Shown here one piece after another: positions 2,628 through 28,084 of a stretch of DNA of 64,000 nt; position 1 is the first letter of the stretch; each line of letters opens with the position of its first letter. The notes under the pieces are model-generated. The model saw only the letters and a list, made by a program, of their open reading frames with translations. It had not been told where the DNA came from and did no database searches. The stretch is taken from positions 2,542,001-2,606,000 of the forward strand of contig CP154954.1 in the NCBI GenBank assembly GCA_039621445.1, in the 5' to 3' direction. The stretch comes from Euglena gracilis. Taxonomy: Eukaryota. A program made the translations under genes and the position numbers.

Positions 2628-2729
2628 CCACCACCACCACCACCACCACCACCACCACCACCACCACCGCCACCACCACCACCACCACCACCACCACCAC
2701 CACCACCACCACCACCACCACCACCACCA
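2628..2729. repeat. (CCA)n microsatellite
   Basis: Near-perfect CCA trinucleotide run; it explains the poly-P/poly-G/poly-V ORFs here. Confidence 0.95.
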
Positions 2730-2744
2730 CGTTTGGAAGCCGCG

Positions 2745-5653: not shown

Positions 5654-5690
5654 GTCAATATCCTCACCCGGGACAGATGGTGGGTTTGTA

Positions 5691-5746
5691 GGAGGCCTGT
5701 TGTTACAGTCAAAGACCCCGCAGGTAAGTAAAGACCGACCTCGGCC
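5691..5746 (-). other. Degenerate 2A-like peptide (GRGRSLLTCG-VFDCNNRPP) in frame upstream of the RT ORF of element D
   Basis: The N-terminal half matches GRGSLLTCG of the 2A preceding RT in A/B; the DVEENPGP core is lost. Confidence 0.6.
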
Positions 5747-6074
5747 TGCCCCTCCGATGCTGCTGCTAGGGTAGGCTGTGTGCTGTCTCTCGCAGAAATG
5801 TAAGGCACCAGCACTTTTAATTGTTTGGCCGACGTTGGGTGGTTTCTTCCAGTCACCGGAGACGGAACCTTGGGGTTGTCCGGTTTATTTTGCTGAGGTG
5901 GGAAGGTTGCAGGCCAGTAGAATCCGGCAGAACTGGCTGGCTGGGGGGCCATTGTTGCAGACCAAAAAGTGGATGTGCTGTCTGGCTGGGGGGCCACTGT
6001 TTTAGTCCAAAATGTGGAGGAACATGGTTTGAGAGTTTGTCGGGGGCTTTTCAGGCTGAGAGCAAAAATGGTGT

Positions 6075-7344: not shown

Positions 7345-8212
7345 CCTTGCGCGGATGTATCACTCCTGAACGAAGCCCAAAGCCCTCACATTCAAAGGAA
7401 GTGTTGGAGTGTGAATGCTTTGCGAAACAACGACAAAAGGTATTATCCTCCAGCCTTCACGGTCAAGACGCCGTCCGGTTCGCAAGCCAACAGCGCGCCC
7501 ACGCAATGGCCTGGGCTTCTGTCACACCATCCTCTGGACTGAAAATATTGGTCGCGTCTGCTGAATTCAAAGGATTTCTAAAGTGGTCACTGGGAGCACC
7601 AGTTTGTCCACCAACTGCACCAAGCCAATGGACAACCTGGGTAATCACCTTGTATGCTGCAGCTCAAATGGCATCACGCGGCGACATGGTGCAATCCAGG
7701 ACTTTGTGTTCCAACTGGCACATGATGCTGGGTTTACAGCAAAAAAAGAACAAGGAGGTCCAGAGAGAACACGCCCGGGCGATGTCCTCATCAGCAGACT
7801 TGACGCCAATGGTCCTGGAGCAGTGGATATCACAGTGAGACACACAGCAGCACCGTACAGACCGTTGCGTGACACAGCTGAACTGACTGAATGGTATGAA
7901 CGCCAAGAGAAGGAAAAACATTCAAAATATGACGCCACCTGTGGGAGGATGGGATAGACCTGCATTCCGTTTGTTGTTGACTGCTATGGCGGCCTAGGCC
8001 AAGAAGCGCTAACCTTAATGTCAACACTGATGAAACTTCTCCTCGGCCAACAAGATGCATGGTCAAAACGCAAAACTGAAGCCGACACATGGCAACTTCT
8101 ATCAATAACTGTTGCGCGAGAGATCGCGCGACAAGTAATCTGGGGACGGTATGCAGGGAACGACACAGATCCAGAAGTAACCAACACCATACACCAGCCG
8201 TATTGTCTGTAA
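7345..8212 (+). pseudogene. C-terminal zinc-knuckle + restriction-like endonuclease of a CRE-like element (probably the 3' half of D, opposite orientation)
   Basis: CTKPMDNLGNHLVCC, RRHGAIQD, RPGDVL, VDITV, KHSKY, PFVVDCYGGLG; contains a frameshift and a stop. Confidence 0.88.
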
Positions 8213-8458: not shown

Positions 8459-8822
8459 TACGGGGGGGTGGATCTGGCATCGGGGGGGGGGGTTGTGGGC
8501 CGACCCTAGGGTCGGCCCACGGTCGCCAAAGGTCGCCAAAGGTCGCCATGGTCGCCAAAGGTCGTGGGTGGGTTGATGTCAAAAAATGCGCTCCACGGCA
8601 AATTAGCGCAACTTACACACAAAAGGAGTTGCACACACAAGGGATTTTTTTTTTCAGGGCCCTGGAACAGTTGCCTACGCCGCTACATGGCAAAAAAAGA
8701 CTGAGTAGGAAATACCCATAGCGACCTTTGGCGACCTTTGGCGACCGTGGGCCGACCCTATGGTCGGCCCACAACCAACTCCCCCCCCCACCCCCAGGCC
8801 AGATCCGGGAGCCAACCGTACG
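8459..8822. mobile_element. MITE-like element with ~90-bp inverted arms and GGTCGCCAAA subrepeats
   Basis: 8459-8545 is the imperfect reverse complement of 8721-8822. Confidence 0.7.
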
Positions 8823-9117
8823 CATAACCAACCACAAGACTAATTAAACCAAAAAACAAGCAAATCACACCTTGCAACGATTGGACCAAGTCTACAAAGA
8901 CGTCCAAACCCTTACCTCACCGAAAACAGAGCCTTCCCTGCGCCAACTCCCCAAAACCTAAACTGGTCGCTGTCACAACCTCAACACTCAACAGTCCCCA
9001 TGGCCGTTCCATTGAACCTTCCCTGCCGCTATACACTTTCCTCTCACACTCGCTAACCCCCCTCCGTACTGTGCCCTTCACCGCCCTTCTTCACCCGCGA
9101 CTCTCCCCCGTCCCACC

Positions 9118-10745
9118 TTGAGAACTTGCTGTGTGCATTACTCTCACCCGCACAGGACTTCGGCTCGGAGTGAACCTCCTAGGCCGCACCTTGGTTTCTG
9201 GTTCGAGTACCTTCCGCCTCCAGTCCACTCCGTCACTTCCGCCCCTACCCCTACCTCACCTACCCCCTTCCCCCTTCGCCCCTACCCCAACTTCCAAGGC
9301 CAGGGGGACGCCCCTGTGCCTCCCATGTGTCAAGAGGCGCCCCATCCCGCCCGCCGCCCAGGGCCCCCTGAGGGGGACGCCCCCATTCCGAGATGCGCCC
9401 AACCTGTGAGCAGCAAAGGCAATGACCTGGGGGTGATGCCGCCAAGGCTCCCGCCCCCAGCGAGCCTGGGCGAGTCTCCCTGCTCCTCCCCCCGGAGGGC
9501 AGCCCCATCCCTCCAACGCCCCCGCAGCACCAGCAGGCTGGCCCACACGTCAACGGCGTTTGCGCTGGGCTATGATCCGCGGGAGACGCCACCAAGGATC
9601 TCTCCCTCGGTGAGCCCGGGCGGGCCTGTCCCTCCCCTTGGTGCTGCCGCAGTCTCCACTGCCGGCCTATCCTCCACCCCTTTCCCAAGATGCGCCCAAC
9701 CTGTGAGGACGAGCTGCCAACCCGCCCCATCGGCTGCTCCCCTTTCCAGCCCCGTCCCAACGTTCCATCCTCACATCCACAGCTGCAGCTTCGTGTGTCA
9801 ATTGTCACCATTTTACGACCAAGGGTCTTGGACACGTGACCTTTGTGAGGATGGAGATGTCGAGCCAAATCCAGGCCCAACTTCACCTCCAGATCCCGGG
9901 GCAGCTTTCTTGGCAATGAATCAAACGGCTGCTGTCATCAACCTGGCTCCTCTCCCACCGTCCGCCGCCTCCTCCGCCTCTGCACCGGCAAGACCAAATC
10001 CTCAAGCACGCAAGCGGAGGGCCGAGCGTGGTCCAGATTCCTCTGATTCTGAAGAAGAGGGCCCAGGCGTTTTCCATTGCCCGTTTCCCCACTGTTGCAA
10101 GTCCTTCCGACATGGCTTTCAAGGCTGGAATACAAAGCGGCTCGCCACAAATCATGTGGCCATGGTTCACGTTGCTGCTGGTGAAATTCCATCATCCGTG
10201 TGGCTCCAAGAAGCGCAACGCTGGGTTTGTGGCCATTGCCTAAGAATGCTGCCGGAGCGGAAAAGGTGTGTGGGGGAGAACTGCTTTCGTGTCAGAGCAG
10301 ACTCCACCCCAAGCCGCTTGCCACCACCGAGCCATCCTCCTGCAGTCCAGGCGGCCTCATCATCATCACGTAACCCCGCACCACCATGTTCCTCCTTGGA
10401 CTTACCAACTGCAGCCATGGCTACGGCGGTTCACGATATCCTGTCCCTCACCAGGCCTCTGTTTCGGCACATCCCGCGTGCAGCCATACCCTTGTGGGGC
10501 ATGGCATGGGCCAAGGTGCAACAGCGTCTCTGCTCCGAGCGCTCATGGGAGGCATTGCGAGATTGGGCCCTCTTTCAAAAAATCACACTGTGGTGCCCAC
10601 GGGGTGGCAAAGCACACAAGGGACAAGCTGCCCAGCTCATCCGCTCACGAGTCGAGCGTTTCAATGCAGGTGACCTTGCAGCTCTGTGGGACGAATATCG
10701 CCAGGGCATCCCGCCGCCGGACCGCAAGAAAAGAAAGAGCACATC
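9118..10745 (+). mobile_element. Element E: 5' part of a CRE-like retrotransposon (Pro-rich leader, 2A, two Zn fingers, pre-RT region), truncated by a TIR element
   Basis: WTRDLCEDGDVEPNPGP; FHCPFPHC..NHVAMVH and CGHC..C..C fingers; HIPRAA..W, FQKITL..RGG and R..RF.AGD..ALW motifs parallel the pre-RT regions of A, B and D. Confidence 0.8.
9829..9879 (+). other. 2A/StopGo peptide WTRDLCEDGDVEPNPGP (element E)
   Basis: Canonical D(V/I)ExNPGP motif, in frame. Confidence 0.9.
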
Positions 10746-10989
10746 GGAGACAAGGCACAGGGGGGGGGAGGGGGGGTCCGAGGGGGGTGGTTGGAAGCTG
10801 TACAGGGGGGGGGGGGGGGGGGGGGGGGCCCCGGAAAATCACAACTGTACTGCCCACCCCCGAGACAGTTGCGACATTTTTCGTCCAATTGAGGTTGGCA
10901 ATGATGGATTTTGCGAAATTCAGATGCATTTTGCAAAATATTTGTGTCTTGTAAAAAGAATGGTAGCCAGTGTTTTCACTTTAAACACT

Positions 10990-12799: not shown

Positions 12800-14465
12800 A
12801 GGACAAGGCAGTACAGTTGGTCAAACCTTGGGACCCCCCTCCCCCCCCCTGTACAGTTCCAACCCCCCCCTCCCGGGACCCCCCCCACTTCCAACCCCCC
12901 CGAGACAGATGAAAAAAAATAAAAAAACCGGCTTGTTTTTTGGAAACAAAAAAAACATGCGGTTTTAAGGGGGTGGTGGCGGGTGGGGGGGGGGGGGGGT
13001 CATGGGGGGGTCACGGGGCGGGGGGGGGGGTCACGGGGGAAGTATGCCACTTTGCAGGTAGCCGGGAGGCAACATCCATGACGTTGCATCGTGATAAAAT
13101 TGGTCATTTTTTGAAAGGGAATTTCGTTAGGATTTTCTTGACCAACACGTTTTTGGGACGAAGTTTGGGCCATTTTTGACAAAATTCCGTTTTGGGTGGG
13201 GAAATGCACCAGTTTTTGGCACTTCTTTCAGGGAAAAATATTTTTGGCCATTTTTGGGAATGAAGGTGCATTGGGCGGACAAGGATACATGAAAATTCAT
13301 TGTTTTTTTTTAAAAAAAATGCTTTTAAAAAAAGAATGGCGAAGGATCGATTCTCGGGTCATGTGGGGGGTTACGGGGTGTAACGGGGGGGGGTCACCCC
13401 CTAAGAATTTTTTTTAAAAAAAACAAAAAAAACCAATGGAGGGTTTGGGGGAATTTTTTTTAAACTTTTTTTTAGAAAAAAGGTCTTTTTTCATCTCTAC
13501 AGCTTCGTAGTCTGTAAAGGGTGCTGGATGAAGTGTCTGGAAAAACTAAAAAAACGTCACGTTTGATGACCAAAAAAAAATGACCCTAAAACTTTTTCCT
13601 CAAAAAAATGGCCATTTCGCAAGGAAACAGGTCAATTTTTGCTTTTTTAAAAAAGAAAACAGGTTTTTTTTGTGTTTTTTTTGAAAAAAAAAAAACATAT
13701 TTTTAGTTCTTTGTTGAAAAACAAAAAAACGTCAACCCTGGCTCAATTCCGCATGGTGTGCCAAGGCGGAGCTGCTTCTTGCCTTTCTGCTAAGTGTTTA
13801 AAGTGAAAACACTGGCTACCATTCTTTTTACAAGAGACAAAATTTTCGCAAAATGCATCTGAATTTCGCAAAATCCATCATTGCCAACCTCAATTGGACG
13901 AAAAATGTCGCAACTGTCTCGGGGGTAGGCAGTACAGTTGTGATTTTCTGGGGACCCCCCTCCCCCCCCCTGTACAGCTTCCAACCCCCCCCTCGGACCC
14001 CCCCACTCCCCCCCCTGTGCCTTGTCTCCATGGGGACAAGGCAGTACAGTTGGTCAAACCTTGGGACCCCCCCTCCCCCCCTGTACAGTTCCAACCCCCC
14101 CCTTCCTGGACCCCCCCCTCCCCCCCCACTTCCAACCCCCCCGAGACAGATGAAAAAAATTAAAAAAAAATGTTTTTTTTAAAAAAAAAAAAACATGTTT
14201 TTTTAAGGGGGTGGGGCGGTTTGGGGGGGTTCATGTGGGGGTCACGGGGCGGGGGGGGGGTCACGGGGGAAGTACCCCCCCCCCCCATATTGTCCCACCG
14301 ACCTCTCCCGACGGGACAATATGGGGGGGGGGGACAATATGGGGGTACGTGTTGGTGTGCGTGTGTGCGTGTGTGGGTGTGGGTGTGTGTGCGTGTGTGG
14401 GTGTGGGTGTGTGGTTGTGTTGTGTGTGTGTGTGGTTTTTTTTTTTGGCATACCTCCTCCCGTGG

Positions 14466-17400
14466 TTAACGGAGGACGTGCTTGGGTTGTAAGAGGTGGA
14501 ACACTTCTCGGAGCAAGGCGATGGCCACATTTTGGTAGATTTCCGCTTGCTTGGTTTCGCGCTCAGCGCCCTGTTGCCAGGACGATGCGCGTTTGGCCAC
14601 TCTGCTCAGTGTCTTGGCCGTTTCCGGTCCCATGCCACCCCATGTCCCGAGGGCGAAAGGTGTGAAGCCCCAACCTGCTTGCTGACATGGCACGTTGTAT
14701 TTCTGCTTTTTGGCGTCCTCCCTCCTCTTCAGGAAGGATCTCCAGCGTTCGCGCGTCGCTGTGTGTTCTGCCGCTTGCCATCCGTGGCAGACGGTGACGT
14801 CCAGCGCCGTCGGCTTCCCCTCGGACCAGCAGTCCAGCAGGAGGTCCGCCGGGCGTAGGTGACTGTCTCGGGCCGTTGGCAGGGAAACTTCCTTCTGCAC
14901 CCGGTGACCGCTGTTGGACAAGGTTTGAAACAGAGCGTCCTGAACAGCGTTGTGCCGGGCTGAGAAGTTGTTCCTGCGGCAGCAAAGCAGGTGGTCGCCT
15001 TCCTGGTCCAGAGGCTGGCCGCACCCTGTGCACGGCTGGCTGACGTCCACCAGCACCGGAAGCCCTAACCACCACTTCAGTCCCAAGGTGTACTCCTCGC
15101 TAGAGAAGGTGGTGTGGGAGTTGTTGGAGGGGGTGGCCGCCATCCACCCGTGTCCGAACCCCGTGGCTTGTTCAAGGAGGCGGTTCTGGTCGCGAGGCCG
15201 GGCCTGGTCCACAAGGCCGCCCATCGCCTTTTTGCCCAGCTCGTGGTTCCACCACTTTTGCCTCCGGGGTTCTTGGTCCGCGGAGGCGAGTCGTTGTGGG
15301 TCTGTGAGGAAGGTGGTGACCGTGGCATGGTTGGCTCCTAGCCTGCCCCGGAGGTCGTCCAGGACGGGCGCGACCAGGGGTAGCTGCAGGCCGGATGCGT
15401 AGTCGGGCACACCCACGCGCCTGGCCCCGTCTGAGTAGAAGTCTGCAAGACAGGAGATCCTGGCTGCGGGCTGAGTGCAGGACGGGACGCGGAGGCCGCA
15501 GCCCCCGCTGGATAGGGGCAGCGACGCTTGGGTCTGCTGTTGTGGGTTCAGTGCCGTGCCCAGTATGTCCTCGAAGGCGTTCATGATGACCTCCGAGCAG
15601 CCTGTAATCTGATCTTGGCTGCCATACGAGTCGGACGCGCGTAGGAGGTGGTTCACTTTGCAGCCGTCTAGGCAGCTCCGCAGAAGGTGATGTGCCACCT
15701 GGGCGTCGGTGAGGGACGTTATGGTAGATGAGGCCTTCTCGATCTTGGGCAGCATCCGCCCACGCTTTCTTAGTGGTGTCGGAGGACGCGGGGTGGTCTA
15801 CTGGGATTCCGAGCACGGTAATGCCTTCCCCTGGTGACCAAGGGACCACTTGCAATCTGTCGCAACTGGGTGCACTCCGCGCTCCCGGGCCCCACATGAC
15901 GCACTTCTGCAGGTTGAGGCGAGGCCGATGCGGTGGGACTCTTGCAGCAGGAAACGGAGGCAGTGTTCAATCCTGTCGGGGGTTCCGACCAGGAGGCCGT
16001 CGTCCAGGTACCAGCTGTTCCATAGCAGCTGGCCGTCCCTGGTTATCTGGTCCAGCAGCGGCTGCAGCGCCAGGGCGAACCCGATGGGGCCCAGAGGGCA
16101 GCCCTGGTGTGTGCCCCTCTGGGAAAGGATGGTGCGGCCCCCGCAGAAGAGGGGGACGGGCCCGCTGTATGCAAACCTCAGGAAATTGAACAGACTGGGT
16201 GTACGGGTCTCGGCCTCTGTGAGGATCGCCCCTCGGTCAACTGTGTTGAAAGCATTGGAGTAGTCCACCTGGAGGGAAACCCAGGGTGAGGTGTCCCCCA
16301 GCTGAAGCACGAGGTGCTGCATGCCCAGGGCAACGGCCTCGGCGGCGTTCCGTACCCCAACCCCGACCTGGGTGGGGGCGAGCGTTGCAACCTCCGACCG
16401 GGCATGTGGTGTCTGGAGCAGTGTTTTCCCTACCAGGCGGCGGATGGTCTCCCCAACCGCCACTGGCCGCACCCCGTTGTCCTTCTTGCGGAGTGGGGTC
16501 AGATTCGCGCAGCACCAGGCCGCGGCGTGGTGCGGGGGTAGTAGCTGGCCGTCAATCCAGAACTGGGTCAGCCGCGCAAGGGCTGTGATCAGCTTGGCTC
16601 CTCGGCCCGGCCTACGAAGACAGTCTTGGAGGTGGCTGGGCCGCAGGCCCGACGGGCCTGCGGCGGAACCCCGTGGGAAACGGCGGATGGCCTCCTTCAG
16701 TCTGTCCTCCCATTCCGGGATGTGGTTCTCAGGGAAGGGCTTAACATGTCGCGGGAGGCGGTTGGTGTCCACCTGTCTGCCGCTTGGGTGCAACTTCTCC
16801 AGGGCAGCCCAGACATCCGGATCATCCGGTTGGTGCGCGCCCTCAGAGAGCAGTAGCTGGACTGCCTTCGCAGACGCCCCTCTTCAGCGGTGAGGGTGCG
16901 CACACCCGTCTCGTGATGGCCTCACTGAGGGCGGTCGGCTGCGTTCTGGAGCGCTTTTCCGCCCTGGTTTCCACGACGGAGTGTCGAGCCTGTGCGTCTT
17001 TATTGCCTCTGTCAGAAGGGTGCCGTAGTCCCCCTCGCGGAACAGTTTGGTACGCCTCAGCAGGATGGACTCCAGCTCCGCTGCCGGCGGTGGTTTGGTA
17101 GTCGACACCGGTCGGAGGACGAGTTTCGGGAAGGATAGGACGCTGAATAGAGCAGCGTCCGAGGGTGCGTGCGTGTATGCGTTGATGGCATCTGCCAAAG
17201 TGTCAAAGACAGGTTGCTGGAAGGCCGAGGGCAGGTGAATAAGGGTCGAGATTCTTTGTTGGAGGACGTGGGTGATGTCGCAAGGGGGAGTGCCCACGAC
17301 CAGATTGTGTGCGGGCCGTCCCCGGAGGTTGGACTCCTGCCCCGCGCTGTCGATAACTACCGCGCGGCGTCAAGTTCCGGGAGCCAGGTCCAGAAAGAGG

Positions 17401-17468
17401 TGGTCGTGGTCCCGGGCATCCGCAGCAGCCGGTGCGCCATGAGGTGGCCCGGAGGCCGGGCGCTTGGC
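14466..17468 (-). pseudogene. RT-RLE protein of element A (several frameshifts)
   Basis: ORF pieces 16884-17297, 15798-16793 and 14466-15755; GPSG, RPVAVGE, VDYSNAFN, QGCP, YLDD (15999-16010), CTGC..HLLCC, RHN, RPAD, DVT, KKQKY. Confidence 0.92.
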
Positions 17469-17522
17469 TGGCCCAGGGTTCTCCTCCACATCTCCACAGG
17501 TGAGGAGGCTACCCCGTCCGCG
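17469..17522 (-). other. 2A peptide RGRGSLLTCGDVEENPGP preceding RT-RLE (element A)
   Basis: 17/18 residues identical to Thosea asigna virus T2A (EGRGSLLTCGDVEENPGP). Confidence 0.95.
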
Positions 17523-17821
17523 GTTTGCCCCCCGTATGCAAGGACTGCCCCGCGGCGGACAACGATGGCCGTTTTTTGGCAGTGAGTCGGCTACCGCTGC
17601 CGGATCCAGGGGGGCCCGTGGCCCGTCGAGGAGGGAGTGAGGGGTGGGGGTCAAAAGCCGGGCGTAAGAGCGGTGGTCTAGGGGCGGCAAACTGAAGAGG
17701 GAGCAGCGTGGGGCAGTCCCAAGGCCATTGCCACAGGCCGCAGCGAAGGCACCAGCAGGGGGTCTGACCGCGGATGTCCCACGGGGCGTTCCGGTGGAAT
17801 AGGAATGTCCGGCCTGCTGCA

Positions 17822-17995
17822 TACCACCCCCCCCCTTTATTGTCCCACCGACCCCCACGGGCGGCCCTTACAATAAGGGGGGGGACAAGAAAGGGGTACC
17901 AAAGGAATTTCATTGGCCGGGCCAAAAAAACCCCCCGTCGGCCGGGGCCCAGGGACAATCAAGGGAGGGGGACAATAAAGGGGGCGGGGGTGCTA
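17822..17995 (-). mobile_element. TA-flanked MITE inserted into the Cys-rich cargo domain of element A
   Basis: Related to 32867-33044; removing it restores the frame ...FRLGD-Y-AAGRTF... Confidence 0.85.
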
Positions 17996-18189
17996 GTCCC
18001 CTAGGCGGAAGACTTCGCCGCCATGAGTGGAGCGGCGTTCTATGATAAGGCGTTGTTGGCCAAGGGAGAGGAGCGGTGCAAGGGGGTAAGGGGAGTGCGC
18101 GTGGCGCGAGAAGTGCCGTCCGTGGTCAGCGCCCCGGTGGGGACCCGGGGGGCCGGGCGCCGCATGGGCTGCCGCTGCCGGTGTGGCAA

Positions 18190-18585
18190 ATCCGTAGGGC
18201 TGTGGTCGACCATGGGGGCCGGCAGCAGCGCTGTCCCCCGGGCCCGGTAGATGGGGCATCGCGGTAAGGTCACGGAAAGCGAGGAGAGGCGCCGCAGGCC
18301 GGCCAGCGCGGTGGACCACTCCGGTGCGAGGAGGATGATGTTGCCCCCAAATCGAAGGACGTGTTCCAAAACACGGGGGAGCAGGGAGAAGGGTGGGTTG
18401 CACCACAGCGGGTTTGGCAAGTTCCAATTCTGGAGGAATGCATCCTCCCTTGATGACCAGAAGGCGTCCAGTTGGGTGTTATTTTGGTCGGCGAAAGCGT
18501 CGATGGTGGGCGGGTTATGGGGGGACAGAGCCCGTACCACCGCCTGGAACCACTCGGTGTCCAGCATGAAGTCTTCGCGTGGTGC
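18190..18585 (-). CDS. Phage Dam/DIRS-like DNA N6-adenine (amino) methyltransferase domain, 2A-delimited
   Basis: PTIDAFADQNN (SAM-binding), DAFLQNW, LWCNPPFS (NPPF at 18388-18399), IILLAPEW; put in frame with the upstream 2A by adding one base to a 7-G run. Confidence 0.85.
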
Positions 18586-18623
18586 GAGGGGGGGAGAACG
18601 GATGAAGCCCGGCCGGAGCTCGT

Positions 18624-18677
18624 GGGGCCGGGGTTGCTCTCCACATCTCCCGCAGTGAGGATGTCTGCGCCCCTGCC
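18624..18677 (-). other. 2A peptide GRGADILTAGDVESNPGP (element A, before the methyltransferase)
   Basis: Canonical DVExNPGP. Confidence 0.9.
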
Positions 18678-18919
18678 GCTCCGAGGCCGCGGGGGAGCTA
18701 ACAGGCGGCGGCAGCCGGCGGCCTGGCGGCGAAGTGTGGAGGTGATGAGGCGCCCACGCGGGGCTCCCTGTGAGTCTCTGGGGGGGGAAGCACGTGGACG
18801 TGGAGTGGAGGTGAGGCCCCGGGGGGTGCCGGTGCCGGGCTGCTGGGCCCAAGAGCGGACGCTCCCCGTCTGGGACGCGTGGAGTCATCGTCGTCGGCAT
18901 CGTCATCCTCCGGGTCGCT

Positions 18920-19372
18920 ATCGACGTCAGAGAGAGACGGTGGTTGGCAGATCTGCATGTGGGCAACTATGGGCGCTGGGTAGGGGGTCGCAGTCGACCA
19001 TCCGCACATTTGGCAGTGTACCAGCCACCACTCGCCGTTTGGGAGGGACTCCAAGTGCTGTAGCCTCCAGCGCCACGAGTCTTCTCTTATGGAGGGGAGA
19101 GAGAAAATGTTTCCCATGGGCCTACCCGCCTGGCATTGATGGGACTGCATGCCTTGGAGGGACGACAGGTTGACGTGCTGAGAGCACAAGAGGCATCTCG
19201 CAAATTCGGACCCTGCCGACGCGAGGTGTGCTGCCGTCCCCGACGACGAGGGGCCGGCGGTTGCCGGGGTGAGCAGACGTAGCCACCGCCAGTGTTGGCC
19301 AGTCCAGTAGATCTCCTCCCAGACGTCGTCGGGCGCCAGGGGGGGGGATGGGCTCGCCGGTCCCCCCGGGCG
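18920..19372 (-). CDS. 2A-released module with two Trp-rich CxxC..H..C zinc fingers (BED-like), element A
   Basis: VWEEIYW..FARCLLC..MQSHQC and WRW..WLVHCQMC..IVAHMQIC, then an acidic tail; conserved in B. Confidence 0.65.
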
Positions 19373-19430
19373 AGGCCCCGGGTTCTCCTCGATATCGCCG
19401 CAGCAGAGGATATCCCTGTGGCAGAGCTGC
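19373..19430 (-). other. 2A peptide QLCHRDILCCGDIEENPGP (element A, first)
   Basis: Canonical DIExNPGP. Confidence 0.9.
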
Positions 19431-20751
19431 CTCGAGAGGCCGGGGCGACTGTGACCGTCGGCGTGATGCCACCCCATCGTATGCCCGTGGCGCCGGCCCC
19501 CCCCGAGGGGCGGTAGCCGGCCGCCCTCCCCCCCCCCTTCTTGGGGCTGCGCGCAGGGGGGATACAGGAGCAGCTGGACGTCGTCGTCCGCTAGGTCAGA
19601 CCAGGTGCGACCGGGGGGGGGGGGGGGCAGGGGGGAAGTGGTGGTGATATGGATTCCCTCCAGCCAGTGGTCCACGAGGACTTTTTTGTATTTTTTCTGG
19701 ACCCGGTCCATTCCCCCCAGATGGAGGCGTCCGTCGAAGACAGCACAGACCAATCGTCTGCTGCTGAAATCGAGTTTGTCGGCAGGTTGGCCGGGGCTCT
19801 GGAACTGGCTGCTAAGGTGTGCTCCTTTTTTTGTGCAGCCCTTTTTTGATCCACCAGGTCGGTGACCATTTTCTTTTCCTCAGTGGACCTTGTCCTGAGT
19901 TTTTCCAAAATCCTCTGGATTTGGGGTGTTGTGGTGCATTTTTGGGGGGGGGGCCTTGGCCCAGTCCTGGGTGTGACTTCAAAAACTTCTGCCCCCCCCT
20001 CTTCCACTCCCCCCCCCTTCGATTTGGCAGGGCACAAATGAAGGAGATGGTGGGAGGAAGGGTCCAGAGGGTCCAGCTGCCATTAAGAGCGGGGCATCGG
20101 TAGCAATGGACATGTGGCTGCCATTTGAATTTAAATTTAAATTTAAATTTGGAACATTTCCAAGCAGCATCCACATGATTTGTAGCAGCAGCTGTCGCAG
20201 CAGGTCGGTGGGGAGCTGCAGCCCTTGGTTGGCTGTTGCACTGGCTGTCATGGTGGGGGTGTTCCCCACAGGGCCCCCCAGGAGGCTGCCCATCTGGGCC
20301 CCCATTTGGCTGCCCATTTGCCCCATTTGGGGCTGCAGCTGTTGCTGCTGTTGCTGCTGTGGCTGCTGTTGTGGCTGGGCAGTCCTTCCAGGCTTCCCCT
20401 GGGGATTTAAAAGTGTGTGGTGTGTGTGGTGTGTGTGTGTGTGTGTTGTAGCCAGGGGGGCGGTAAGGGCTGCTCAGGCTGGTGTCGGAGGTGGCGGGGG
20501 ATGTAGCGGCTCTGGTGCTTTTTTTTGAGGAACTCCTCGTAGGCTTCGTCTTCTTGTCGTCTCCTTTTTCCCGGTCGTCCTTCCTCCACCTTGTCGGCCA
20601 GCTCTTCCACTTTGCTTGCTAATACCACCATATTTTGAGCCACCAGGCTCACTTGCTCCAGCACCGAATTCAATTTTTTGTTGAGGATGACGTTGTCCAG
20701 CGGCACTTCCAGCACGGCTGGCGGGTCTTCTGGGGCCGCGGCCCCCGACAT
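19431..20751 (-). pseudogene. ORF1-like N-terminal region of element A (coiled-coil, Q/QMG-rich), frameshifted
   Basis: ATG 18 nt after the SL (GCCATG); heptad-like LNSVLEQVSLVAQNMVVLASKVEELADKVEE; QMGSQMG and LPTDLLRQLLLQ shared with B. Confidence 0.6.
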
Positions 20752-20769
20752 GGCGGTTTATGCGGAGAT

Positions 20770-20795
20770 CGAAAAAAAATAGACACTCAGAAAGT
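20770..20795 (-). other. Exact spliced-leader exon at the 5' end of element A
   Basis: ACTTTCTGAGTGTCTATTTTTTTTCG, 26/26 to the Euglena SL as I recall it. Confidence 0.92.
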
Positions 20796-21109
20796 GGCTC
20801 AACTTTTTTTTTTCGGACACAGAGTGATTCACTCACGGTGGTGGGGCGAACCGAATCCACCGACCAGTGGCGCAGCCTACTGGATTTGAATGTTCGAGGG
20901 TGCGGGGATATAGACAACGCTGGAGTGTGGGTCAGTTCACAGCAGGGGCAAAGGGCGGCGGGAGGAAAATGGGCGAGGCCCACCTTCAATATGTTGCGCG
21001 GGGGAAGAGAGGAGCGGAGGTGTGCGGCGGAACAGGAGTACGTGCGGGGGAGGAGGGGTGAGCGGCAGGGCAGTACGCGGCTCGGTGAGGTGTGCTGTGG
21101 TGGGCGTGG

Positions 21110-21183: not shown

Positions 21184-24182
21184 TTATCGGAGAATGTGCT
21201 TGGGTTGAAGGAGGTGGAAGACTTCGCGTAGCAGGGCGATTGCAACGTTCTGGTAGATCTCTGCCTCCTTTGTTTGACGTTCCGCTCCCTGTTGCCAGGA
21301 GGAGGCGCGTTTCGCCGCCCTGCTCAGGGTTTTGGCCGTCTCAGGTCCCATGCCCCCCCACGTCCCGAGGGCGAAGGGCGTGAAGCCCCAGCCTGCTTGC
21401 TGGCATGGGATGTTGTACTTTTGCTTTTTGGCCTCCTCCCGTCTCTTCAGGAAAGATCTCCACCGTTCGCGGGTGGCCGTGTGTTCCGTCGCCTGCCATC
21501 CGTGGCAGACGGTGACGTCCAGTGCCGTCGGTCTCCCGTCAGACCAACAGTCCAGGAGGAGGTCAGCCGGGCGGAGGTGGTTATCTCGTGCCGTTGGCAG
21601 GGCAACCTCCTTTTGCACCCGCTGTCCGCTGTTAGACAAGGTTTGGAAAACCGCGTCTTGCACAGCGTTGTGGCGGGCGGCGAAGTTGTTCCTGCGACAG
21701 CAGAGGAGGTGGTCTCCCTCCTTGTCCAGGGGCTGGTTGCATCCCGTGCATGGTTGGCTGACATCGCTTAATACCGGGAGGCCCAGCCACCACTTCAGCC
21801 CCAAGGTGTACTCTTCGCTGGAGAAAGTGGTGTGGGAGTTATTTGAGGGGGGTGCCGCCATCCAACCGTGTCCGATACCTGTAGCCTGTTCCAGGAGGCG
21901 GTTTTGGTCCCGCGGTCTGGCGTGGTCCACTAGATCATCCATGGTCTTCTTGCCCAGCTCGTGACTCCACCACTTCTGCTTCCGGGGCTCTGAGTCCGCG
22001 GAAGCGATGCGTTGAGGGTTGTTGAGGAAGGTGGTGACGGTGGCGTGATTGGCCCCTAGCCGGCCCCTGAGGTCGTCCAAGACAGGCGTGATGAGGGAGA
22101 GCTGTGGGGAGGTTGCGTATCCAGGAACACCGACACGTCGTGCCCCATCAGAGTAGAAATCTGCAAGGCAGGAAATCCTGGCCGCCGGCTGTATGAAAGA
22201 TGGGACGCGGAGGCCGCAGCCGCCACTCGACCAGGGCAGGGAAGCCTGGGCCCGCTGTTGTGTGTTGAGAGCCGTGCCCAGTACGTCCTCAAAGGCGTTC
22301 AAGATCACCTCAGAGCAGCTTCTCACCTGGTCCTGGCTGCCATACGAGTTAGAGGCACGCAGCAGGTGGTTTACCTTGCAGCCATCCAGACAGCTTCGGA
22401 GCAGGTGATGTGCTACCTGAGCGTCGGTGACGGACGTGATGGTGGATGAAGCCTTCTCAATTTTGGCGGCGGCAATCTCCCACGCAGTTTGTGTGGTGTC
22501 CGTAGAGGCTGGATGGTCGATTGGGATACCCAGGACGGTGATGCCCTCCCCTGGGGTCCAGGGGACCACTTTCATCCTCTCACAGCTCGGCATACTCCTG
22601 GCTCCCGGGCCCCACAAGACGCACTTCTGCAGGTTCAGGCCGAGCCCCACTCGATGGGACTCTTGCTGCAGGAAACGTATGCAGTGCTCAATCCGGTCTG
22701 GGGTCCCGACCAGCAGGCCGTCGTCCAGGTACCAGCTGTTCCACAGCAACTGGCCATCTTTGGTGATCTGTTCCAATAGAGGCTGTAGCGCAAGTGCGAA
22801 CCCTATAGGGCCCAAAGGGCAGCCTTGGTGTGTGCCCCTTTGTGATAGGATGGAGCGACCACCACAGAACAAGGGAACGTGCCCGCTGTACGCAAATCTC
22901 AGGAAATTGAACAAGCTGGGGGTGCGCGTTTAGGCCCCGTTAGGATCGCCCCGCGGTCCACCGTATTGAACGCATTGGAGTAGTCCACCTGGAGAGAAAC
23001 CCAGGGCGATGTGTCCCCCAGCTGGGTGACCAGGTGTTGCATCCCCAATGCGACGGCCTCAGCTGCGTTTCGTACCCCAACCCCAACCTGGGTAGGGGCG
23101 AGGGCGGCAACCTCGGATCTGGCGTTTGGTGTCTGGAGCAGGGCTTTCCCCACCAAGCGGCGGATGGTTTCCCCAACCGCAACCGGTCGTACCCCGTTAT
23201 CCTTTTTGCGGAGGGGTGTCAGATTCGCACAGCACCAGGCGGCGGCGTGGTGGGGCGGTAGCTGGCCGTCCACCCAGGCTTGTGTCAGGAGAGCGAGGGC
23301 AGTGACCAGCCTTGCTCCCCGGCCTGGTCTCCGCAGGCAGTCTTGGAGGTGGCTCGGTCGCAAACCAGATGGCCCCGGCGCCGACCCCCGCGGGAAGCGT
23401 CGAATGGCTTCCCTCAGTCTGTCCTCCCAGTCAGGGGTGTGGTTCTCGGGAAATGGGCGGACGTGACGCGGCAGGCGGTTGGTGTCAACGTTCCTGCCGA
23501 TAGGGTGTAGCTTTTCCAGGGCGGCCCAGACCTCTGGGTCGTCAGGTTGGTGCGCCCCCTCGGACAGCAGAATCTGGACAGCCTTGGCCGAGGCCCCCTC
23601 CGCAGTGAGGGTGCGTATGCGTCTATTCATTGCTTCACTGAGGGTGGTGGGCTGTGTCCTGGAGCGTTTTTCCGCCCTGGTTTCAACAATGGAGTGTCGT
23701 GTCTGGGTGTCCTTCTGGGCCTCTGCCAGCAGGGTGGCATAGTCCCCTTCGCGGAAGAGCCTGGCACGTCTCAGCAAGATGGACTCCATTTCTGCAGGTG
23801 GCGGTGGTTTGGTTGTTGACGCGGGGCGTAGGACAAATTTGGGGAAGGAGAGCACGGCGAACAGCGCCGCGTCCGATGGTGCGCGTACGTAGGCCGTGAT
23901 GGCGTCTGCCATGGTGTCGAAGACATATTGTTGGCAGGCGGAGGGTAGGTGGATGAGGGTCGGAATTCTCTGTTGGAGAACGTGGGTGATGTCGCAGGGG
24001 GGAGCCCCAATCACCAGGCTATGCCCAGGCTGCCCTCGGAGATTGGATTCCTGGCCTGCGCTGTCGATGATCATTGCCGCGTCGCGATCCGGGTGAGCGA
24101 GGTCCAGGAAAAGGTTGTCATGCTCCCTGGCGTCTGTTTCGGTTGGCGCGCCACGAGGGGATGTTGGTGCCGGGCGCTTGGC
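21184..24182 (-). CDS. RT-RLE protein of element B (one frameshift near 22930, possibly a sequencing error)
   Basis: ORFs 22899..25364 and 21184..22914; YLDD at 22720-22731; complete RLE motifs; closely similar to A. Confidence 0.92.
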
Positions 24183-24236
24183 TGGTCCCGGGTTCTCCTC
24201 CACATCCCCGCAAGTGAGAAGGCTACCCCGTCCGCG
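24183..24236 (-). other. 2A peptide RGRGSLLTCGDVEENPGP (element B)
   Basis: Same peptide as in A but with many synonymous codon differences. Confidence 0.95.
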
Positions 24237-24539
24237 GGTAGCCCCCAAAGTGTGGGCACCGCCCAGCGTCGGGCTACAACGGTCGTTTTTTGGAGTGGGG
24301 TGGGCCGGTGCTGATTTAGCACGTGGTGTTTGTACAGCGTGTAGGAGGGGGCGCGGGATGGTAAGGATGGCATCGCCCCTGCCAGTGGATGTATGGGGCG
24401 AGATAGGAAATGGACGGTCGACGGGGGTGGGCGCTGGTGCTGGGCTTCCGGAGTCTGCAACGGTGAAGTTCCTTTGGTCGTGTTCCGAGTCACCGTGCAT
24501 GTCATCATCTCCGTCGTGTTCAGCGTCCCTTTCCGAGTC

Positions 24540-24989
24540 GCTCTCCAAGTCCGAGAGGGACGGCGGTAGACAAATTTGCATGTGGCTCAGTAGGGGCGCC
24601 GGGTAAGGGGTTTCGGTCGACCACCCACACACCTTGCAGCGCACCAGCCACCACTCGCCATTTGGAAGGGACTCCAGGTGTTGTAAATTCCAGCGCCAAT
24701 AATCTTCCCGGACTGTGGTGAGGGAAAAAATGTTACCGAACGGCCTACCTGCCTGGCAGTGATGAGACTGCATATCCCAGAGGGACGACAGGTTGATGTG
24801 CTGAAAGCACAGGCGGCATCTCGCAAATTCCGTCCCTGGGCCGGTCTGGGAGGGGGTCCCGAAGGATGGACCTGCTGTAGCTGGGGTGCGCAGCCGTAGC
24901 CACCTCCAGCGCTGGCCATTCCAATACAGCTCATCCCAGACGTCGTCTGGTGTCAGGGGGGCTGATTGGCTTGCTGGGCCCCCTGAGGG
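24540..24989 (-). CDS. 2A-released tandem BED-like zinc-finger module, element B
   Basis: FARCRLC..MQSHHC and LVRCKVC..LLSHMQIC, in an uninterrupted frame between two 2As. Confidence 0.65.
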
Positions 24990-25046
24990 CGGGCCCGGGT
25001 TTTCTTCGATATCCCCACAGCGTAGGATATCCCTGCGACAATTTTG
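24990..25046 (-). other. 2A peptide QNCRRDILRCGDIEENPGP (element B, first)
   Basis: Canonical DIExNPGP. Confidence 0.9.
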
Positions 25047-25964
25047 CCTTTGGTTCTTGAGCCACAGGGGCTCTGGCTGCAGTGGACCGCCAGTCCTGTG
25101 GGTGCCCACTGTGCGCCAGGTTCCCCACGTTCCGATGGGGAGAAGCCAAAAGGCTCCAGCCACTTGCTGTGTTTCCAGTGTGGACCTAGTCCTCGTTTTC
25201 CCCAAGATTTGGAGTTTTGTGGTGCAATTTTCTGGGGGGGGGGGTGTTGTCTTTTTTGGGACCTCCAATTTCTCCTTTCCCCCCCCCCCCCGCCTCCCGC
25301 CTTTGGCTTGGGCAGAGTATTGGGCAGGGCACAAGGGGAAGAAAATGTTGGGAGCAAGGTCCAATGGTTCCAGCTGGGGGGGCCAATGGTAGTGGGGCAG
25401 CTTGCAACAGCAGCTGTCGCAGCATGTCGGTGGGGAGCTGCTGCCCTTGATGGTTGTTGGCTTTTGCCCTGGTGCTCATGGGGGGGGTGTTCCCCACTGG
25501 GCTGCCCATCTGGGTCCCCATTTGGCTGCCCATTTGTGGCCCCATTTGTCTGCCCATTTGTGGCCCCATTTGGGCCAGCAGCTGTTGCTGCTGTTGTTGC
25601 TGGGCAGTCCTTCCAGGCATCCCCTGGGAAAGTAAAAGTGTGTGGTGTGTGTGGTGTGTGTGTGTGTGTGTGTGTGTGTTGTAGCCAGGGGTGGGGTAAG
25701 GGCTGCTCAGGCTGCTGCTGCTGCCACGATGCCAAACACATGTCGTACTGCTCAAAGGGCTCAGAAGCCCACTTCACTGTGGTCGTGTTCTGGACCTTCA
25801 CTCCACCTTGGACTCGACTTGGACGTCCACTTGTTCTTGGACTTAACCCCTTGTACTTGATACCAGTACTTGTGACCAACAAGTGGGTATGCTGCTCGCA
25901 GTTGTCCTTCGTATTGAGCTTCGGACCCCACTCGGGGCTTTCAAGCCATGAGCACGTGTGGAGA

Positions 25965-25990
25965 CGAAAAAAAATAGACACTCAGAAAGT
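25965..25990 (-). other. Exact spliced-leader exon at the 5' end of element B
   Basis: 26/26 identical to the copy at 20770-20795. Confidence 0.92.
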
Positions 25991-25998
25991 GGCTCAAC

Positions 25999-26450
25999 TG
26001 CTTTTTTCCTTTGATTAGATTCAAACTGCTTTCGCTTTGCTTTCGCAGCAGGATCTGCCCAGTGTTGTCCGTGATGTGCACTCGGTTTCGATAATCTTGC
26101 AACACAAGTGCAACAAAACCTGCATCGTGCAGGCTATATTTGCCCTTGTTGCGTTGCTCGATATGACGCTTGCCAGGTGCTGTCCCACGGGACTTCCCAC
26201 GGGCCATTAGTGATTCCTTCACGGGCATGAGAAAATCTGTCAAATGAAAAACCGGTCGATAATTTTCCCCCCCCCTGGTTTTGGGCTCCGTGGGGGGGGG
26301 AAATTATCAGACACTTATAGTAACCATGGACCCATGGAAATGTGGGGTGAATTGAGTAGCCCCCCCCTAATTGTCACTTTCCCCCTAATAGTCGCCAAGG
26401 GGGTCAAAACGCTCCCAGGGGGGTGCCATATAGGGGGGGGGGTCACGTTA
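25999..26450. mobile_element. Right part of a TA-flanked TIR DNA element (terminus GGGGGGTCACGTTA) that received A and B; other part at 12266-12697
   Basis: AAATTATCAGACACTTA..GTAACC and GGGGGGTCACGTTA are shared by 12590-12697 and 26300-26450. Confidence 0.7.
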
Positions 26451-28084
26451 TGTGTCGTCAGAGGCGTGCCTGGGTTTTGTTCAATGTCCCCACAGCGAAG
26501 GAGGGGCTTTCCGGGTGTCCATTTGCAGGATTTGTCCTTTGGGCGGGCAATGTGCAGTAAGGGGCTGTTTTGGCGAGGGCGGTGTTCCGGGGGGAGACAA
26601 GGCCTCGACCCACGTCTTGCCTGTGGTAAAGGAGTCTCCACAACCGCTAGCTGACCTGTCGGAGGAAATTCCTTTCTTCCATCACTTTTTGGTGAGCAAG
26701 GGCCGACGTCTTTCTTTTGTTGAAAAAGGCTGCGTAATGGGTTACGTCGTCATCCTCCATTTCCGAGGGAGGGGGGGCTCCATACTAATGAGGGCAGTTG
26801 TTCTTGTTCAGGGGGGGGCGTGCTTTTTGGTGGGCTCTGTGGCCCATGATCCTGGAATATTTCTGCTCCAGCTGTAACATAAGGGGATGTATGCTGGGGG
26901 TGTTGATGTGCCTGGGGGTGGAGGTTCAGGTTTGTAAATAAAAAAACAGTCAACATCATGTCTGGGGGGGCTTGGAGGTATGGCGTTGATTTTGCCAAAT
27001 TTTTTGGGAGTGGGTTTTCAATCGCTAGACGATTTTCATCTTCAATGTTGGACTCAGTTTGGTGCAACTGGTGGGGGGGGGGGATCAGCTGGGGTGGGGG
27101 TGGGGGTGGGAGATTGGGGTAGCAGGTTGTGGAACTTTGCATGGGGTGAGGCGCAAACTTGCAGAAATGAAAGGCTGGCATGGGTGGTTCTGGGCTGGGC
27201 AGGGGGGTTGGCAGTGGAGGCAAATTGTGTAGTTTGGGGGGGGGTTGGACTGTAGAACATTGCATGGGAAGCAGGTGTGTTTCAGGTTTGACATGGGGGT
27301 TGGCTGTTCAGGGGGGGAAATGCAGAGCACAGGAGCAAGGCATGGGGGGGAGGCAGGTTCCAGCAAGTGCAGTCCAGAGCAATCAGATGCAGATTCGTGG
27401 GTGATGGCTGGCCCAGGTCTCTAGGGGTGGGGTGGGGGGGGGCTGGTTGAGAGGGGATGCTGGGGGGTGGGGGCAAGCAGGCATTCTGTGGTGGCGGATT
27501 GGTTTGGCAGTGGTGATAATTTGGGTGAGAATTTGGTGCTGGACTGGGCTGATTTGTCAGGAATGGTGGGGGTGCAGGCAGGAGGGGGCACAGCTGGGGG
27601 GGTTGGAAGGCCTGGCCAGTCTGGGGGGAATGAGGGTGGGGAACAGGGAGGGGAGTGAGCCATACATTGTTAATCTTCTTCTTCCCGATGATGCTCAGGG
27701 GCTGTTGAGAGCAGGCTCCATTGTGGTGGGTGGCTGAATTGCAATGGTTCCTGTGGGAGCTGCACAGCCTCTCCCACAGCCCAAGAAGCCTCCACAGCAG
27801 GAGGCTTCTTAGTTTGGCTAAGTCTACCCCACTTGGGGACTGTGGGGTCAGGAAGGGGTTGCTCCCCTCATTCCCTTGACTCCCCTGGAATGGGGAGTTG
27901 AAGGGGCCCTTGGGACGCTTCGCTGCCGCGCTCTTGTTCGATGCTTCTTCGGGGGCTCTCTCCTTGCTCATCCTTCGACCACCTTGTTACGCTCGTCGGC
28001 GTATTCTTTGGCGTCCAGCACGCCGGCTTCATGCAACTCAGTGAGTCCTCTCAAAATTTCTTTGATTTCGTTCGTCGTACTCAT
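26451..28084 (-). mobile_element. Element C: 5' part of a divergent, related retroelement (ORF1-like, Pro-rich region, 2A-like LLRCGDIEQNPG)
   Basis: ATG at 28084 (MSTTNEIKEILRGLTELHEAGVLDAKEY...), frameshifted Pro-rich frames, 2A-like motif at 26465-26503. Confidence 0.6.

Follow-up and report, generated by a model that had tools for sequence, protein, structure and literature searches.

A likely RLE-type retrotransposon of Euglena gracilis, present as a defective copy, with serial 2A motifs and a Dam-like methyltransferase cassette

Retroelements that carry accessory enzymes, or that divide their products with 2A peptides, have been described in several classes. Dam domains were found in DIRS and long terminal repeat (LTR; Ty3/Gypsy-like) elements in a survey of 10,030 Dam proteins (10.64898/2026.05.21.726589); the text of that survey names the long interspersed nuclear element (LINE) only for possible Euglena chimeras and contains neither NPGP nor the word "endonuclease", and its figures or supplements may list a LINE class. 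2As were reported in LINE clades of the apurinic/apyrimidinic endonuclease (APE) type (PMC3708506), in the text of which the restriction-like endonuclease (RLE) clades appear only in the introduction, as single open reading frames (ORFs) with a reverse transcriptase (RT) and a REL-endo domain. Josephin and OTU deubiquitinases lie N-terminal to ORF2p beside a 2A, Dualen/RandI included, according to the text of PMC13405545. The subject here is a stretch of 64,000 nucleotides of Euglena gracilis (contig CP154954.1, positions 2,542,001 to 2,606,000 of the forward strand), called the window below and numbered from its first letter. Its minus strand holds, at 14466-20812, what is likely to be a defective genomic copy of a high-copy RLE-type (R2-like) non-LTR retrotransposon with a multi-2A polyprotein and a Dam-like cassette; it is called copy 1 here, and a neighbouring sister element copy 2. 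A preliminary description made from the sequence had named both kinds of precedent and had supposed the combination of Dam, serial 2As and an RLE-type LINE to be undescribed. No description of it was found in the literature searched, and the figures and supplements of the relevant papers may bear on it.

In the direction of its coding strand, copy 1 presents 2A-1 (DIEENPGP, 19373..19396, in the context RQLCHRDILCCG-DIEENPGP-RPGG; the same motif stands in copy 2 at 25013-24990), a zinc-finger module with two CCHC motifs (19195-19133 and 19015-18947) and an acidic tail (18909..19372), and 2A-2 (DVESNPGP, 18624..18647, context SGRGADILTAG-DVESNPGP-TSSG). The Dam-like (PF05869) methyltransferase domain follows at 18181..18609, recognised by Pfam, by its relatives and by a structural model, and after it a Cys-rich extension of the methyltransferase product (17644..17811, with CWCLRCGLWQWPWDC at 17757-17713) and 2A-3 (DVEENPGP, 17469..17492, context RGRGSLLTCG-DVEENPGP-AKRP). 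The RT protein then begins with its N-terminal domain and RT core (15924..17468; Pfam RVT_1 at 16490-15924, YLDDG at 16010-15996) and continues with the RT thumb or linker, a C-terminal CCHC motif (15032-14979) and a PD-(D/E)xK endonuclease (RPAD 14855-14844, LDVTV 14804-14790), together 14469..15923, up to the stop codon at 14466-14468. All these features lie on the minus strand, in the places and in the order in which the preliminary description had put them.

Relatives elsewhere hold the same parts in single ORFs. A word-index search with the RT half of copy 2 returned 112 proteins at E ≤ 1e-3, six of them with a precomputed PF05869; all are unnamed or "hypothetical", save an Octopus "uncharacterized protein" and a hypothetical protein of a Planctomycetes metagenome-assembled genome. 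The uninterrupted ORF of P0009 (1481 aa) reads 2A, Dam, 2A, Cys-rich module, two adjacent 2As, RT and RLE; that of P0007 reads Dam, two 2As and RT-RLE; and that of P0006 reads Dam, a Cys-rich motif like that of copy 1, one 2A and RT-RLE, the Cys-rich extension of copy 1 being 41% identical by tblastn to its residues 185-240. In P0139 (1805 aa), Dam occupies 319-374 and RT 985-1183, and between the two stand 2A-like motifs at 477, 574 and 597 (one of them strict). P0021, P0029 and P0030 are likewise uninterrupted, with Dam and three to four 2A-like motifs, and end within or before the RT; a 2A stands directly before the Dam domain in P0021 and P0030, and P0029 begins at the domain. In these three and in P0009, Dam and the 2A-like motifs are in frame before the N-terminal domain of the RT protein or before RT-RLE. 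The order 2A-Dam-2A-RT-RLE thus recurs across the family, and the architecture of multiple 2As, Dam-like cassette and RT-RLE is, as judged from these protein sequences, a real and family-wide trait. The preliminary description was to be given up if the methyltransferase were never in frame with the 2As in other copies; since the relatives hold Dam in frame with them, it stands on this point.

The same association appears when the search starts from the methyltransferase. The word-index search with this part gave a single match, P0001, and an exhaustive HMMER search (phmmer) with the 143-residue Dam segment gave 673 proteins at E ≤ 1e-3, 63 at ≤ 1e-10 and two at ≤ 1e-30. A 2A-like motif is present in 45 of the best 150 of these 673 (in strict form in 36) and in 32 of the top 50; the maximum among the best 150 is five, all strict D[VI]ExNPGP, in P0152. 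Lower-ranked matches have architectures of the kind already published for Dam-bearing DIRS and LTR elements, combining Dam with an rve integrase (P0240), with a C5 DNA methyltransferase (DNMT) and peptidase A3 (P0245), or with an RT after it (P0222) or before it (P0197). A single Dam protein compared with metagenome contigs found no relative; the C-terminal alignment found four distant loci there (L001-L004), none with the 2A DNA pattern, and viral contigs searched for related loci gave none. An atlas query with RT-RLE returned unnamed RVT_1 clusters with mixed eukaryote labels.

Two trees place these domains. The RT tree (116 sequences in, 115 matched to the profile, 108 with at least 200 profile positions kept) gathers all 19 rows with a 2A, namely 16 database proteins and three window elements, into one group of 36-38 rows with support of 91-92, and a 2A occurs in none of the 70 rows outside it. 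Among the 17 rows of the group that lack a 2A, 12 start less than about 265 residues before the RT core, and these cannot show one because about 265 residues is the nearest 2A distance in complete rows. The Dam-bearing rows are scattered within the group. In the Dam tree (154 sequences in, 132 with at least 85 positions kept), 42 of the 43 2A-linked rows share the same side of a branch with support of 89 (67 rows), and the starred clade (97) to which the Dam domain of the window belongs has 46 rows, of which 32 carry a 2A. In 29 rows a 2A precedes the Dam domain: it reaches just to the domain start in 20 rows (gap -6 to +7), stops at most about 20 residues from that start in six further rows and 61-100 residues from it in two, and P0224 has a gap of 21.

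Both the RT and the C-terminal part bear on the class of the element. Pfam RVT_1 matches copy 1 with E 1.5e-9. When a profile of 29 relatives was compared with the PDB, the R2 proteins 9nl3_A and 9dou_A matched from the RT through the C-terminus (E about 4e-25) and R2Bm at 7.5e-11, L1 ORF2p matched over the RT core only (about 3e-7), and group II intron RTs matched more weakly. The C-terminal part of 50 sequences has the invariant columns C67, C70, D79, H80, C84, H93, E114, D129, D144 and K174. An AlphaFold2 model of the endonuclease part, built on the homologous segment of copy 2, reached a predicted local distance difference test (pLDDT) value of 92.5; the top seven Foldseek matches to it are R2 proteins (E 2.9e-7 to 6.6e-4, template modelling score 0.42-0.60), followed by Prp8 and cap-snatching endonucleases, and the fold of this endonuclease is R2-like. 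No Pfam match to an APE domain (Exo_endo_phos) was obtained in nine window ORFs or in the 20 relatives scanned. The families Phage_integrase and RNase_H, which a DIRS element would carry beside its RT (as tyrosine recombinase and RNase H), appeared neither in the window ORFs nor in the 2A-bearing relatives scanned. A C-terminal profile of five sequences and P0007 alone each gave no match in the PDB. Because of the R2 profile and fold matches, the invariant columns and the lack of an APE domain, the element is RLE-type and R2-like, with an RT and a C-terminal restriction-like endonuclease, as had been proposed; among RLE elements, kinship is established with the R2 type only, through its PDB references. 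The preliminary description had placed the element in the CRE clade (CRE1/2, SLACS, CZAR), whose members insert into spliced-leader genes, and this narrower placement goes beyond what these comparisons support.

The likeness to R2 elements (PDB 9dou, 9nl3, 9nl2, 8gh6, 8ibw-z) extends over RT, linker, CCHC knuckle and PD-(D/E)xK endonuclease and, in kind, to N-terminal zinc fingers. Unlike R2, the element has its zinc fingers split from the RT by a 2A, it carries extra cassettes, and its 3' end is an A-run with (CA)n. Rfam reported no RNA family at all in the window and so gave no sign of a 28S rDNA setting.

The methyltransferase analysis (heading label METHYLTRANSFERASE; domain 18181..18609, minus strand) found the Dam/N6-methyltransferase profile match that had been expected: Pfam Dam PF05869 scores E 6.8e-7 and 29.6 bits, against a curated cut-off of 28.1. 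The motifs are IDAFA (18504-18490), DAFW (18468-18457) and NPPF (18399-18388). In an alignment of 70 Dam sequences, W62 and N71 are invariant and D37, F39, A40, N44, A57, W69, P72, P73, F74 and P96 are conserved at 90% or more; this conservation implies that the methyltransferase pocket is under constraint, and NPP[FYW] is retained in 137 of the best 150 of the 673 Dam relatives. An AlphaFold2 model based on the 70-sequence alignment reached pLDDT 90.9. In an all-against-representatives structural scan (VIA), the best 50 rows, those considered, are all S-adenosylmethionine (SAM) methyltransferases with Z of 4.9-8.1, among them Mcbe1 (Z 7.1), T4 Dam (6.9), EcoDam (6.0) and DpnM (5.8). A class-I SAM methyltransferase fold is thus indicated with moderate support, the support being only moderate because Foldseek alone gave no match at E ≤ 0.001.

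Several of these results weigh against the reading given above and are best taken together. The Pfam Dam score is marginal, and P0007 (27.3) and several other relatives fall under the cut-off: of 18 relatives with a Dam row, five score above 29.6, five lie at 28.3-29.6 or just below the cut-off (24.9-27.3), and eight are lower still. The Foldseek search with the Dam model had no match at that threshold, and the Dam profile compared with the PDB by sequence had none. A VIA Z of up to 8.1 is in the range common for the scan, and this makes the scan consistent with Pfam Dam and not decisive. Both trees were made with FastTree only, their supports are local Shimodaira-Hasegawa-like values, and the branches on which the 2A grouping depends (89-92) carry no star; moreover, P0040, P0031, P0023, P0026 and, as a borderline case, P0016 have room upstream and yet show no 2A, although they belong to the 2A group of the RT tree. 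According to the text of 10.64898/2026.05.21.726589, the catalytic and target-recognition parts at the N-terminus of bacterial Dam are missing from the Dam domains of eukaryotic retrotransposons, and E. coli cells expressing related retrotransposon Dam domains showed no gain of N6-methyladenine (6mA).

The last two observations bear on the substrate. It is possible, though doubtful on the whole, that the Dam-like domain does not serve here as a DNA adenine methyltransferase and acts instead on RNA or on an RNA:DNA hybrid, or that it is a non-catalytic module that binds nucleic acid or SAM. The best structural match of all, with Z 8.1 and 21% identity over 125 aligned residues, is the RNA cap adenosine N6-methyltransferase PCIF1/CAPAM, and rRNA and tRNA methyltransferases make up most of the best 50 VIA rows. 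PCIF1 likewise uses NPPF. The domain is about 130 residues long, without the bacterial target-recognition half, and the preprint that reported no gain of 6mA in E. coli itself proposes a hybrid substrate (10.64898/2026.05.21.726589). Against this, the only sequence family matched is Dam PF05869, the DNA enzymes T4 Dam, EcoDam, DpnM and M.BseCI are among the 50 VIA rows (Z 5.0-6.9), and raised 6mA was reported on Dam-bearing LTR elements (10.64898/2026.05.21.726589). Adenine methylation is a predicted activity of the Dam-like enzyme, and so is the m6A/m4C writing put forward in the preliminary description. The likeness to the Dam-bearing elements of the survey covers these points: a PF05869-like Dam, an Asn-Pro-Pro pocket and truncation relative to bacterial Dam, and, as an idea, a retroelement carrying its own epigenetic writer, the activity here being a prediction. 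Their carriers, in the survey's text, are DIRS and LTR elements, in contrast to the RLE-type LINE with a 2A-bounded cassette found here.

The state of copy 1 itself counts on the same adverse side. Its parts are not in one frame; there are at least eight frame changes, including those around the methyltransferase, and the homology path, obtained by ungapped protein comparison with copy 2, crosses a stop at 17370-17372. On this path, 19432-18797 is in frame class 1; 2A-2, 17696-16998, 16880-15921 and 15746-14469 are in class 2; and the methyltransferase, 17001-16903 and 15918-15748 are in class 0. Within the RT protein the frame changes near 17000, between 16903 and 16880, and near 15920. The frame of 2A-2 differs from those of both the zinc-finger module and the methyltransferase, and the only in-frame contiguity within this copy runs from 2A-1 to the zinc-finger module and from 2A-3 to the RT. 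The single ORF seen in P0007, P0009 and P0139 is broken in the window copy, which, as written, cannot make the proteins. For the proposed triple-2A polyprotein that makes four proteins, then, the layout fits and the parts of this copy are not in one frame.

A further part of the damage is a segment of 176 nt (17818-17993, minus strand) whose 20-nt inverted arms (17827-17846 and 17969-17988) are 95% complementary and which interrupts the stretch joining the methyltransferase to the Cys-rich motif. It is read as a MITE-like insertion (miniature inverted-repeat transposable element), apparently private to copy 1 and no part of the family, on the strength of the arms and of contig junctions. The terminal motif of this MITE has seven matches in the window, against 0.11 expected. 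Homopolymer frameshifts, to which the preliminary description had attributed the broken frames, account for part of the damage, and the MITE insertion, 2-nt indels and the stop for other parts. MITE-like sequences with GGGACAATxxxGGGGG termini flanked by G/C homopolymers were noted at 17818-17993, 14281-14328 and 32874-33035. The depth of DNA runs is very high over 17862-18073, in the MITE-like region.

Public read data were compared with copy 1 for four of 24 listed runs. Contigs of X1 and X15 join 17817 directly to 17994 and so, with these two positions adjoining, lack the MITE. Small indels separate the short-read contigs from the window at 15302/15305, 15919, 16534, 16901, 16997, 17361, 17380, 18146 (GG) and 18212 (CG) and at nine further places, and those at 15919, 16997 and 16901 coincide with frame breaks of the window. 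By frame arithmetic, +2 at 18212, +2 at 18146 and -175 for the MITE would bring the methyltransferase and the Cys-rich motif into one frame. The summed contig word depth, which does not equal copy number, ranges from hundreds (X1) to tens of thousands (X10) and fits a multi-copy element. Private mutations and assembly errors are not separable in these data, because contigs drop rare variants, and this also tells against the reading. In X22, 55 of 12.9 million raw RNA records were placed, 54 of them partly and mostly on low-complexity sequence; they gave no usable evidence of expression and are not counted either way. X15, whose RNA label is a guess, has a depth of 2-4 over parts of the element and is not used as evidence of expression. 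About half of the sampled words of 17300-19500 are present in DNA runs, among X1-X14, that belong to five coded organism labels (A-E); label F, the sixth, is confined to a run that has a small share of the words and is guessed to be RNA. Words shared across labels A-E could mean close relatives, a symbiont or shared material.

The broken frames also raise the question of whether the methyltransferase region belongs to the LINE polyprotein or is foreign to it, either as a nested piece of another element (e.g., a DIRS element) or as an assembly chimera. Copy 1 already carries one foreign insert, the MITE; its Dam region does not share a frame with the parts on either side; and copy 2 is without a Dam region. 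This origin is nevertheless highly improbable, since at least seven independent proteins read Dam, 2As and the RT protein (its N-terminal domain or RT) in a single frame, the Dam domains linked to 2As group apart in the Dam tree, and the junction in the 20 rows in which a 2A ends at the domain start is too regular for random nesting. In addition, the ORFs scanned gave no match to a tyrosine recombinase, integrase or RNase H family.

The 2As of the window stand out from chance. The degenerate 23-nt pattern for D(V/I)ExNPGP has six matches in the 64 kb, against 0.00 expected, and none of 100 shuffles reached six; three of the six strict matches are in copy 1. The motifs end in D(V/I)ExNPG|P after a Leu-rich stretch, as in class A, which is the GDVE plus NPGP type and is distinguished from the class B of a different Trp/EEGIE type (PMC12338488), and in the relatives they stand in frame between two coding parts. 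2A-3 is identical to the T2A peptide, as quoted in 10.1101/2021.03.10.434623, at 17 of 18 residues. The 2025 survey of eukaryotic 2A genes reports, in its text, at most three 2As per gene (PMC12338488), compared with up to five 2A-like motifs in the relatives here. Class-A D(V/I)ExNPGP in LINE coding sequence upstream of the RT protein is shared with L1Tc/Ingi and the APE-type clades (PMC3708506) and with Dualen/RandI and Symbiodinium ORF2p (PMC13405545); the difference is that the word "methyltransferase" occurs in none of the 2A papers whose text was searched. A further paper, PMC12846837, touches on 2A in its text only as a mention in the reference list.

Skipping at the three 2As of copy 1 would be the expectation from their motifs, and the layout fits four products, with predicted separation into an N-terminal protein, a zinc-finger protein, a methyltransferase with Cys-rich tail and an RT-RLE. 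The same architecture could serve another end, in which the 2As are mainly dosage valves: each site would lower everything downstream of it, so that the N-terminal, zinc-finger and methyltransferase products greatly exceed RT-RLE and some products stay fused. Most retrotransposon-linked 2A-like peptides that were tested lowered protein abundance (PMC13405545), at 70% of their occurrences in ORF1p and at 59% in ORF2p, and among 580 RT-element contigs with 2As, about 79% of them non-LTR-like, highly active 2As were reported in only 43 (10.64898/2026.09.24.754024). Tandem 2As a few residues apart in relatives (at 356 and 376 in P0009, and at 467 and 491 in P0029) would also suit graded attenuation. 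However, T2A, to which 2A-3 is nearly identical, is a widely used separating peptide, and 36 of the 45 2A-bearing proteins among the best 150 Dam relatives have the strict D[VI]ExNPGP form, which leaves a predominantly attenuating role conceivable but less probable than separation.

If the 2As act mainly as separators, an intact family member would have one long ORF interrupted by class-A 2A/StopGo peptides, and at every NPG|P the ribosome would release the upstream product and continue translation. A single mRNA would then give four products: first an N-terminal protein, next a zinc-finger protein with two CCHC motifs, then the Dam-like methyltransferase (in copy 1 with its Cys-rich tail) and last the RT-endonuclease, which would carry out target-primed reverse transcription (TPRT). 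The methyltransferase belongs to the Dam family of eukaryotic retrotransposons, known already in DIRS and LTR elements; here it is a 2A-bounded cassette that can be present in one element and absent from a very close relative, as in copy 1 and copy 2. Most speculatively, the enzyme might mark the new cDNA or the insertion site. The preliminary description had proposed that the mRNA is trans-spliced; a spliced-leader motif of the dinoflagellate type, perhaps not that of the host, had no match in the window at three or fewer mismatches, and this part of the proposal found no support.

A bolder proposal is that, in one clade of RLE-type LINEs, the single ORF became a modular polyprotein like that of a virus, with the 2As as cassette borders that allow accessory proteins to be gained, lost and reordered without new promoters or start codons, and with a Dam-like cassette, taken from DIRS or LTR elements, that writes N6-methyladenine on the TPRT intermediate or on the new copy. 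It is put forward here as speculation that is probably wrong in at least some of its parts. If it were true, the insertion would resemble "active" chromatin of the host or be shielded from a host nuclease, and the fact that 2A-3 is almost the same as the 2A of an insect virus would point to an exchange of 2A modules between retroelements and RNA viruses. Serial NPGP sites that divide one ORF are known from the multi-2A polyproteins of RNA viruses (picornaviruses, PMC11512398), and the 2A of Thosea asigna virus is nearly identical to 2A-3; the system here differs from these viruses in being a chromosomal, RT-encoding, high-copy retrotransposon. Another partial precedent is SymbioLINE-Dnmt (PMC5890265), a LINE with a DNA-methyltransferase-type enzyme upstream of the RT; according to its text, in which NPGP has no occurrence, a separate ORF1 encodes this enzyme, a C5 cytosine DNMT, and the endonuclease is APE (Exo_endo_phos), unlike the arrangement described here.

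The co-option of Dam by retrotransposons would thus extend from the DIRS and LTR classes to an RLE-type LINE, and by another genetic route, that of a 2A-bounded cassette. An RLE-type LINE, of a class described as encoding one multifunctional protein in the introduction of PMC3708506, could in effect bear at least four genes per mRNA. The window also shows a cellular genome to be a source of natural class-A 2A variants, one close to T2A included.

Copy 2 (21184..26007, minus strand) has two 2As (25013-24990 and 24206-24183), the zinc-finger module and RT-RLE, and no methyltransferase cassette. It has one frame break, in the RT near 22910-22930. The two RTs are 90% identical over 274 columns and are sisters in the RT tree with support of 100; the zinc-finger module of copy 1 has 64-79% protein identity to that of copy 2. 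The stretch 18908-17585 of copy 1 is replaced by 234 nt in copy 2. Copy-1-type elements with Dam and copy-2-type elements without it form a natural paired control in the same genome, and since their RTs are 90% identical, long-read 6mA maps could test for self-marking. Where copy 1 has GRGADILT just before 2A-2, copy 2 has GRGDAILT at 24383-24360, which may be a relic of cassette loss; the DNA match is of 10 nt (E 0.51), a lead only. The 5' region of copy 2 has no long ORF from an ATG.

The two copies also help to define the ends of the element. The first 49 nt of copy 1 (20764..20812, minus strand) are 93.9% identical to 25960-26007 of copy 2, compared with about 77-81% elsewhere in the element; this difference suggests a constrained 5' end, which may be a promoter, a signal of the 5' untranslated region (UTR) or a template-switch end. 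The preliminary description had located the element correctly and set its 5' end at 20795, which this shared block moves to about 20812. At the other end, the 3' UTR, A-run and imperfect (CA)n tail occupy 14349..14465 (minus strand), and copy 2 ends alike, in an A-run plus (CA)n, at 21183-21110. Between the 5' block and 2A-1 lies the N-terminal region (19397..20751, minus strand), with an ATG at 20751-20749, a charged helical stretch and then (CA)n/CAG low complexity, and with its frame broken. The name "ORF1-like" given to this region holds for its position only, as no Pfam family matched it at E ≤ 1 save for one chance-level row at 0.43. For the zinc-finger module, the family leads are weak (zf-C2H2_12 and zf-BED; Pfam E 0.074, atlas query scores up to 0.87), and of nine window ORF pieces scanned with Pfam, five had no family. 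A tRNA scan of the window found none.

Other elements of related kinds are strewn through the window. A more distant member of the 2A-bearing RT group lies at 2561-5884 (minus strand) with a stop-to-stop frame of 1107 aa, a decayed 2A (GRGRSLLTCGVFDCNNRPP, at about 5746-5690) and a frameshifted C-terminal part. A fragment at 9016-10950 (plus strand) has GDVEPNPGP (9856-9879), a Cys/His-rich segment and an N-terminal domain of the RT protein, and another at 7380-8137 (plus strand) is the RLE C-terminal part of a different family, with no (CA)n tail. Upstream of copy 2, a decayed 2A, GDIEQNPGT (26465-26488, minus strand), is probably the remnant of yet another element. At 8460-8790 (plus strand), inspection by eye shows a long inverted repeat whose GGTCGCCAAAGGTCGCC-type units flank a short spacer; it may represent a further foldback or MITE element. 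Finally, a satellite with a 163-nt unit in 8.6 copies (92% matches) occupies 62504-63900.

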